Shown piece after piece: positions 35,069-35,144 of a stretch of DNA of 64,000 bases. Under the pieces are notes generated by a model. The model worked only from the letters and a program-made list of their open reading frames with translations, was not told the origin of the DNA and ran no database searches. The position numbers and the translations under genes were made by a program. The DNA is taken from IMG/VR virus record IMGVR_UViG_3300033066_002009, positions 8,961 to 72,960 of that record. The stretch is one strand, 5' to 3'. How positions within the stretch are numbered: position 1 is the first letter of the stretch; each line of letters begins with the position of its first letter. This DNA is from a virus.

Positions 35069-35144
35069 GAGGGCATAGCTCAGAGGTAGAGCTGCTCGGC
35101 TGTTGGGGCCGAGATGGTCGCGGGTTCAAATCCTGTTGCCCTCG
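35069..35144 (+). tRNA. tRNA with non-canonical anticodon arm (9-nt loop CTGTTGGGG, or 6-bp stem plus TGTTGGG). Anticodon ambiguous (TTG or GTT).
   Basis: Acceptor GAGGGCA/TGCCCTC is perfect. D-arm GCTC..GAGC, T-arm GCGGGTTCAAATCCTGT. Confidence 0.55.

Follow-up and report, generated by a model that had tools for sequence, protein, structure and literature searches.

Do phage transfer RNA (tRNA) genes that depart from the cloverleaf consensus serve to recode messages, or are they tRNAs of unusual build? This question is raised by a stretch of 64,000 nucleotides from the IMG/VR virus record IMGVR_UViG_3300033066_002009 (positions 8,961 to 72,960), called the window in its whole length here; it belongs to a large, unclassified phage whose tRNA set is nearly complete. 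A preliminary description had singled out four elements in it: 35069-35144, with an anticodon arm thought typical of frameshift suppressors; 43324-43395, with neither GG in the D-loop nor a TPsiC sequence; and 37902-37970 (Met-like) and 42467-42534 (Cys-like), with truncated D-arms. Decoys, regulatory mimics of tRNA and recoding tRNAs were offered as explanations. We confirmed the structural details of these non-canonical tRNA-like genes for all four elements. The proposal of recoding tRNAs was not supported, as we found no stop-reading anticodon in the array and no sign of frameshift or readthrough. Judging from sequence comparison, we favour with moderate confidence the reading that these are real tRNA genes, part of a phage array in whose lineage non-canonical architectures are tolerated and conserved, and that they are not recoding devices.

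Most tRNA genes of the window stand in a single array.

35727-43934, minus strand: main tRNA array with 37 default ARAGORN calls, interrupted by an HNH endonuclease gene and a few open reading frames (ORFs).

At default settings, ARAGORN called 39 tRNA genes in the window, most of which were confirmed by Rfam; the two on the plus strand are a Lys-UUU gene at 33688 and 35069, and the other 37 are on the minus strand. Five further elements (Met, Cys, Arg-UCU, Leu-UAG and a second CAU) were gained at lowered thresholds, bringing the total to about 44. Once these are counted, the window has anticodons for all 20 amino acids, with UUU and UUG present twice and UAG three times. At -ps85, ARAGORN also made six calls in the approximately 52 kb beyond the array; these are presumably false. 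Besides the four elements named above, odd ones were found at 35346-35418 (plus strand), 35631-35700, 37971-38053 and 43864-43934 (all minus strand). The tRNA elements are more than chance matches: they all sit among closely packed tRNA genes, and for the Met and Cys types recurrence elsewhere is accompanied by covariation. For comparison, the gene for the window's major vault protein homologue was used as an anchor, which yielded 80 IMG/VR loci and one ENA locus, L007 (loci are cited by such numbers throughout); the tRNA arrays of L007 and of L016/L103 are syntenic with that of the window. Megablast found no near match to window positions 33000-37000 among deposited phage genomes. Existing gene calls extend only over DNA upstream of the array and contributed nothing on its tRNA genes.

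The evidence that carries our reading comes from three array genes, Met 37902, Cys 42467 and Trp 43864, which form one class with a minimised D-arm (mini-D).

37902-37970, minus strand: mini-D tRNA(CAU), Met; A8, D-arm CUGU-AGG-ACAG, linker GGA, loop CUCAUAA, A73.
42467-42534, minus strand: mini-D tRNA-Cys(GCA); D-arm CAUC-CGG-GAUG, U73-CCA.
43864-43934, minus strand: mini-D tRNA-Trp(CCA); D-arm GGUGA-UGG-UCACC; a default ARAGORN call, with the anticodon placed at position 31.

In this architecture a single base joins the acceptor stem to a D-stem of 4-5 bp that is capped by an NGG triloop, and the other arms are normal. The D-arms of the Met-like and Cys-like genes, 4 bp and 3 nt each, are truncated, as first described. 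The triloop retains the two guanines (G18G19) that dock on the T-loop; A14, R15 and U8 are lost. All three genes can form 7-nt anticodon loops of the form YU-NNN-R, in the Cys gene with an A.C closing pair around the loop UUGCAAC; the anticodon arm of the latter can also be drawn as a 5-bp stem with the 9-nt loop AUUGCAACC. Met 37902 and Cys 42467 were missed by default ARAGORN and both were found at -ps90. The Rfam tRNA model (RF00005) gave no match to Met 37902 even at E<=10, did not list Cys 42467 at E<=1 and did not match Trp 43864. With the tRNA-Sec model (RF01852), the Trp gene and the Arg-like element at 35631 scored 24.5 and 21.2 bits, respectively, against 47, and their anticodons are CCA and UCU.

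To find relatives of the Met gene, IMG/VR and JGI metagenomes were searched with a structure-blind pattern (AGG triloop, GGR linker, CUCAUAA, TTCGA), followed by a stem filter, which left 11 distinct mini-D tRNA(CAU) sequences, the window member and 10 others. In their alignment 96.5% of the cells are paired, a percentage that the stem filtering inflates, though the filter cannot create diversity of pair types. Changes on both sides were observed in 20 of the 21 pairs, among them all four of the D-stem. The covariation score was 0.97 versus 0.23 for shuffled alignments (0 of 500 shuffles reached it), and slid controls had at most 48% paired. Among the partner loci (n = 10), eight carry other tRNA genes, four of these as dense arrays of 9-21 (L123 has 21 tRNAs within 2.3 kb), and three short fragments have nothing else called.

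The design extends to other identities. It was found, with compensatory D-stems, in Trp, Cys, Tyr, Arg-ACG, Thr and initiator-like Met tRNAs of other arrays; Trp 43864 has a counterpart in L123 with compensatory D-stem changes, and mini-D Cys genes also occur in L123 and L127. The site of Met 37902 lies between Arg-CCU and Val-UAC; it is occupied in L007 by a full-size tRNA-Met and in L016 by an element with the architecture of Met 37902 that ARAGORN did not call (A8, GCUA-AGG-UAGC, GGG, loop CUCAUAA). Cys 42467 follows Asn-GUU, and a tRNA-Cys occupies the same position in L016. The window's only Cys and Trp anticodons, together with one of its two CAU genes, come from the mini-D class; if the mini-D genes and the low-threshold CAU element were discounted, Met, Cys and Trp would be lost from the set. 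Because the mini-D genes are conserved, covary and hold these anticodons, we conclude that they are probably functional tRNAs. The suggestion of decoys or mimics therefore fails for the Met-like and Cys-like elements. The same share in the anticodon set leads us to expect that the mini-D Met, Cys and Trp tRNAs would act as ordinary elongators.

The mini-D genes share with tRNA-Sec and with mitochondrial tRNAs of reduced D-arm a long D-stem, a tiny loop, the loss of U8-A14 and R15-Y48, and weak matches to the Rfam tRNA-Sec model. They differ from both in their normal acceptor and T arms (7/5), in having no long variable arm and no UCA anticodon, in keeping the D-stem and GG, and in their setting in a bacterial virus. 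Literature searches found no description of phage tRNAs with such D-arms, and the class is a new structural variant of phage tRNAs.

A second CAU element lies in tandem with the Met gene, and a further element is weakly Arg-like.

37971-38053, minus strand: second CAU element; C1xA72 mismatch and A73-CCA (initiator hallmarks), long bulged anticodon stem, 8-nt T-loop of the UGCAA type.
35631-35700, minus strand: weak tRNA-Arg(UCU)-like element; tiny D hairpin, irregular and elongated anticodon stem.

The former was called by ARAGORN at -ps80 and has a fold z of -2.9; the tandem of a C1xA72 CAU gene followed by a mini-D CAU gene occurs in the window and also in L123, L127 and L147. The latter was called at -ps90, its Rfam score being the tRNA-Sec one given above, and its T-arm resembles that of T4 tRNA-Arg. 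It would supply a UCU anticodon, which is otherwise missing.

The element reported at 43324-43395 departs from the consensus in another way.

43321-43395, minus strand: tRNA(UAG) with a short variable arm; C33 (loop CCUAGAG), T-loop UGAGAAU, A73-CCA encoded.

The CCA end, the loop CCUAGAG and the absence of GG in the D-loop and of TPsiC were all seen as originally described. The D-loop AAAUUUUUAA consists of A and U only, without any G, and the T-loop has no TTC; C33 replaces the canonical U33. There is one acceptor mismatch, C5.A68, and the Rfam tRNA model scores the gene at 50.7 bits (cut-off 29). The variable loop AAGU and A73 group it with the phage's other short Leu tRNAs (CAAGU, UGAGU, GGAGU). 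These short tRNAs with Leu anticodons (CAA, GAG, UAA), of 75-77 nt and without a long variable arm, lie at 37242-37316, 37548-37623 and 37628-37702 on the minus strand of the window; the class is also present in L007 (708-946, 3676-3751), and the Leu tRNAs of L016 are normal long-arm ones. All bacterial tRNA-Leu have a long variable arm.

Is the elbow of 43321 decaying or changed in a concerted manner? The following tRNAs of the compared arrays bear on this point.

L007 312, 544, 622 and 3676; L031 79; L072 1371 and 3840; L103 9923: tRNAs with a UGC T-loop (U55 to G55).

In all eight (8/8 across these arrays), the UGC T-loop goes with AG in place of GG in the D-loop, which looks like covariation of the 18-55 elbow contact. 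The 43321 gene goes further, with G55 and A56 opposite a D-loop free of G, and this fits an elbow compensated on both sides rather than one in decay. The gene product would thus fold into the L-shape and probably decode CUN codons. Two other identities were considered and rejected. Read on the plus strand, 43321-43395 presents the mirror loop CUCUAGG of an amber suppressor, and the T-arm position then becomes a 3-bp stem with a 10-nt loop; the Rfam match, the CCA end and the minus-strand orientation of all neighbours also rule out this reading. A tRNA-Pyl-like identity fits neither the linker lengths nor the anticodon. A search for an orthologue between the Lys genes of L103 found none. Features of tRNA-Pyl do appear in the window, as a 6-bp anticodon stem in 35069 and as the lack of G18G19 and T-Psi-C in 43321, but the traits are split over two genes, the linker and variable-loop lengths are others, and there is no CUA.

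The altered position 33 is not restricted to 43321. C33 occurs in about 11 distinct tRNAs, approximately 4% of the tRNAs in these phage arrays, with Thr-GGU of the window among them; the positions are 38389-38460 (minus strand) in the window and about 10 tRNAs in L007, L103, L021, L039, L092 and L102. For lytic-phage tRNA arrays, it has been proposed that substitutions in the anticodon loop stop host anticodon nucleases from acting (PMC10264068). By analogy, nuclease evasion would be a reasonable explanation for the loop change of 43321, which may make the tRNA a poor substrate for such enzymes. The window array is otherwise similar to those of lytic phages (T4, T5, cluster C1 mycobacteriophages and jumbo phages), in which dozens of tRNA genes on one strand, with HNH genes and small stable RNAs interspersed, cover nearly all amino acids. 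It is unlike them in that several of its genes deviate from the consensus cloverleaf itself, with a mini D-arm, an altered elbow or the short arm of the Leu type, and that the Rfam tRNA model does not see two of these.

The element that gave rise to the idea of frameshift suppression is more difficult to place.

35069-35144, plus strand: tRNA, GAGGGCA-TA-GCTC-AGAGGTA-GAGC-TG-CTCGG-CTGTTGGGG-CCGAG-ATGGTC-GCGGG-TTCAAAT-CCTGT-TGCCCTC-G; default ARAGORN call, no CCA encoded.

It had been credited with a perfect acceptor stem and T-arm. The acceptor stem deserves the description, with 7/7 Watson-Crick pairs; the T-arm does not, as two of its five stem pairs are G.U. The core is canonical (U8, A14, the G15/C48 positions, G18G19, G26.A44, T-loop TTCAAAT and G73), the D-arm and both the D-loop and the T-loop are normal, and none of the stems outside the anticodon arm contains a mismatch. 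The abnormality is confined to the anticodon arm, which does not form the canonical 5-bp stem and 7-nt loop with U33. As first noted, two folds can be drawn: a 6-bp stem CUCGGC/GCCGAG with the 7-nt loop UGUUGGG and G33, or a 5-bp stem with the 9-nt loop CUGUUGGGG, whose terminal C and G can pair; RNAfold adds a further U.G pair. ARAGORN labels the element tRNA-Gln(ttg) by using a shifted stem, TCGGC/GCCGA, round the loop TGTTGGG, and Rfam scores it at 47.8 bits (RF00005, cut-off 29) with the anticodon loop modelled as an insertion. Over 2950 nt the window shows 100% identity to L089, which was assembled independently from another sample; hence the sequence of 35069 does not stem from misassembly.

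The identity of 35069 is ambiguous. Three registers of the anticodon are possible: CU-GUU-GG (Asn-like, U33), UG-UUG-GG (centred, G33) and GU-UGG-GG (Pro-like, U33). The body is nearest to Lys- and Pro-type phage tRNAs, and the anticodon stem CUCGG/CCGAG is the same as in Pro-CGG of the window. The T-arm and acceptor contain a 22-nt exact match, the only one in a genome, to a cellular tRNA-Trp(CCA) of a Fimbriimonadia metagenome-assembled genome (MAG; L152 655-730), and G73 is the bacterial Trp discriminator. Display of an antisense or codon sequence for tRNA-Trp by the loop (UUGGGG versus CUCCAA) was considered and rejected, the complementarity being not significant (P about 0.2-0.3). Origin of the loop by hairpin inversion was also discarded; its reverse complement is not recognisable as a 7-nt anticodon loop.

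The element heads a 560-nt stretch free of called genes, in which the plus strand carries, in this order, tRNA 35069 and the following features.

35186-35239, plus strand: copy of the L11-binding or GTPase-associated centre (GAC) of 23S ribosomal RNA (rRNA), H43 and junction, with its own closing helix GGGAG/CUCCC.
35346-35418, plus strand: degenerate tRNA-like element; acceptor AAGUUGG/CCAACUU, 5-nt linker, normal D-arm, loop CUUAGAA (UAG), A.G closing pair, 4-bp T-stem.
35429-35457, plus strand: copy of the sarcin-ricin loop (SRL), hairpin GGUGCCC-U-AGUACUAGAGGAAC-GGGCGCC with a 7-bp stem, 190 nt downstream of the GAC mimic.
35588-35629, plus strand: GC-rich hairpin followed by T8, read from the sequence as a likely terminator of the non-coding unit.

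The region 35145-35632 is strongly structured (fold z = -3.85). The GAC copy matches positions 1095-1146 of the Rfam large-subunit rRNA model (E = 3e-5) and E. coli 1055-1088 (z = 7.9). Its core is present, unannotated, in at least eight cultured phages and 12 IMG/VR contigs, nearly always within tRNA clusters; the cultured phages include Acinetobacter ME3, Pseudomonas Milchi, Astolliot, pf16 and UNO-G1W1, Xanthomonas XacN1, an Aeromonas phage and a Paenibacillus phage. Same-strand tRNAs border the GAC mimic in 15 other phage loci, and the sequence downstream of it does not resemble rRNA. The SRL copy matches E. coli 2651-2669 at 17 of 19 positions (z = 3.8), and, taken alone, such a copy has a 30% chance of arising somewhere in the window; it is absent from the other GAC-mimic loci and was found only in the window phage. 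The GAC mimic is not in Rfam and literature searches yielded no description of it, and the unit with the two copies of 23S rRNA elements is the most novel thing in the window. Leaders of ribosomal-protein mRNAs likewise carry an rRNA site copied outside the ribosome; the phage copy of H43 differs in being nearly base for base and in standing in tRNA clusters, not upstream of a ribosomal-protein gene. The 35346 element scores 28.6 bits with the Rfam tRNA model (cut-off 29), was called by ARAGORN at -ps90 and has a fold z of -1.7.

The unit also contains a 30-nt block, ACCCUYAGAGNNUUUGGUGUARCAACACAC, found at 35513-35546 (plus strand) of the window, L001 1781-1815 and L150 901-935. This block is conserved with intergenic DNA near tRNAs of Acinetobacter phage ME3 and Ralstonia phage RSP15, and it has an antisense match inside terL of cyanophage CL131.

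Taken together with its tRNA core, this context of a non-coding unit suggests that the tRNA body of 35069 may be kept for a reason other than decoding. We would expect, with low certainty, that 35069 decodes poorly or not at all, and its fold may persist because it opens a non-coding transcript (35069-35629) that runs to the likely terminator and contains the mimics of GAC and SRL. In analogy with handles of the mascRNA type, in which a tRNA shape directs RNase P and RNase Z cleavage of adjacent RNA and which serve here as a model for the unit only, 35069 and 35346-35418 could be RNase P or RNase Z processing handles, or tRNA-shaped modules of the 35069-35629 RNA.

Several observations weigh against the reading of these elements as genuine and conserved genes, in addition to the filtering of the CAU set. 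The 35346 element and the Arg-like element at 35631 rest on sub-threshold scores without comparative support and are tentative. No homologue of 35069 was found in IMG/VR with exact patterns or with patterns of degenerate loop, so that it is a singleton; the 111-amino-acid ORF upstream of it is likewise an orphan among 5.8 billion proteins, the sole other carrier contig being 100% identical. With no diverged relatives of the locus to compare, selection on the loop of 35069 and a processing role are both conjectural. Irregular UUG-centred loops also occur next to tRNA-Gln in two related phages, at L103 3911-3983, with the 8-nt anticodon loop ACAUUGGA, and at L085 824-898; ARAGORN assigns them the 4-base anticodons attg and ttga, respectively. 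As they recur, loops of this kind may not be irrelevant, and a function in decoding, or one specific to the loop, is hinted at. The L103 and L085 elements are extra tRNA-Gln paralogues next to normal Gln-UUG and Gln-CUG genes; 35069 is not a Gln paralogue.

The alternative that survives best, possible yet unlikely in our estimate, is that recent inactivation made pseudogenes of 35069 and perhaps also of 35346 and 35631, a small indel of the anticodon loop being too young to have been followed by decay. A single 2-nt insertion could explain the anomaly of this singleton, irregular anticodon loops are found by ARAGORN in six of the 378 distinct tRNAs of these loci (about 1.6%), and 35346 and 35631, each with several defects, show part of what a pseudogene should show. 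The 35069 element shows neither of the usual signs, scattered stem mismatches and lost core bases: no stem outside the anticodon arm is mismatched and all conserved tertiary nucleotides are kept. Furthermore, it lies within an organised, terminator-bounded non-coding unit and not among decaying members of the array.

Somewhat less probable is that both 35069 and 43321 are fully functional decoders, in which G33 or C33 and the longer stem were selected for escape from host anticodon nucleases. This explanation draws on the published evasion hypothesis (PMC10264068), on C33 in about 11 tRNAs, on the duplicated anticodons (UUU, UUG and UAG) and on the RNA-repair genes by the arrays of relatives; in L007, an RNA ligase and a CPD domain adjoin the tRNA array. 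Against it, G33 with a 6-bp stem should impair decoding. The ambiguous identity of 35069 (GUU, UUG or UGG) is a further objection, and G73 with G1-C72 is unlike the phage's Gln or Pro tRNAs.

We regard as doubtful a further explanation, by which 35069 and 35346 are not adaptors but tRNA-shaped modules of a composite RNA, 35069-35629, that copies the factor docking site of the ribosome (GAC, SRL and the shape of an A-site tRNA) and would act as a decoy, titrating a host factor or trapping a defence toxin. The decoy or mimic idea is entertained for these two elements only, which flank rRNA-mimic RNAs. The succession of tRNA, GAC mimic, tRNA-like element, SRL mimic and terminator on one strand within 560 nt agrees with it, as do the strong structure of the region and the conservation of the GAC core across many phages. 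Against it, the SRL copy is found in the window phage only and has the chance of occurrence given above, and ordinary tRNAs flank the GAC mimic in other phages.

Recoding leaves traces in anticodons and reading frames, and both were inspected. ARAGORN found no CUA, UCA or UUA anticodon among the 44 array elements; a single tta call at -ps85 lies at 60969, far from the array, and is presumably a false positive. The gene most useful for comparison is the following.

30956-33595, plus strand: full-length major vault protein homologue of 879 amino acids, upstream of tRNA 35069.

The protein aligns with its relatives end to end and its gene has no in-frame stops, and other long genes are intact open frames in the standard code. 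A scan for junctions extendable by a +1 shift returned 22 overlapping ORF pairs, none of which suggests a frameshift, gene starts and homology of the fused products not having been checked. Gains in ORF length on readthrough of TAG, TGA or TAA were uninformative as to stop reassignment in this GC-rich DNA. Classical +1 suppressors (sufD, sufA6, sufB2) have 8-nt loops arising from one inserted base. The loop of 35069 resembles these and engineered quadruplet decoders in that it can be drawn with more than 7 nt and is G-rich at its 3' positions, but it has 9 nt, or 7 nt without U33 after C-G closure to 6 bp, shows no suppressor anticodon and has no dependent frameshift site that we could find. 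It is therefore very improbable that 35069 is a +1 (quadruplet or quintuplet) frameshift suppressor or recoding tRNA and that the other odd tRNAs also recode: the 9-nt drawing, the 4-base readings in L103 and L085, and the CUA suppressors of many relatives, by which recoding exists in the wider group, face a loop whose ends pair, a window without stop-reading anticodons or frameshift signs, and Met, Cys and Trp elements with normal 7-nt loops and U33. This interpretation is unsupported. As to the relatives, amber suppressor tRNA(CUA) genes were seen in many vault-protein phages (L021, L024, L026, L032, L038, L053, L055, L071, L076, L080, L082 and L085) and none in the window phage.

Other genes of the window, which is part of a metagenome contig of 108,546 bp, give some picture of its source. 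The encoded proteins include an HNH endonuclease, a dCMP deaminase, an ATP-dependent ligase with a LigD phosphoesterase domain, a Ser/Thr kinase and tail-like proteins. The HNH endonuclease gene at 36677-37216 (minus strand) sits within the tRNA array, and the ligase of 600 amino acids, encoded at 45566-47368 (plus strand) with the LigD 3'-phosphoesterase domain at its N terminus, could be a repair enzyme. Relatives of the major vault protein are encoded in 216 IMG/VR stretches, often in or beside tRNA arrays and RNA-repair genes; cellular relatives come chiefly from myxobacterial MAGs, which may hint at the host.

Our favoured reading, a phage tRNA array that tolerates and conserves non-canonical architectures, has consequences for translation and for the annotation of phages. 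Reduction of the D-arm of the mini-D kind is otherwise associated with mitochondria and tRNA-Sec. Conserved and covarying tRNAs with a 3-base D-loop in viruses that use bacterial ribosomes suggest that a D-arm cut down this far is acceptable to the bacterial machinery of translation and tRNA processing. Phage tRNA repertoires, including claims that a phage has no Met, Cys or Trp tRNA, may be systematically wrong, because these mini-D genes escape the Rfam tRNA model and two of the three also escape ARAGORN at default settings. The recurrent C33 and the compensated elbow provide concrete variants for the idea that host defences targeting tRNAs shape the tRNAs of phages. The copies of rRNA sites by 35069 may represent phage RNAs of a new class, directed against the translation apparatus, and, if the composite RNA does trap a host factor, the GAC-mimic core would be a widespread and undescribed family of phage small RNAs within tRNA clusters.

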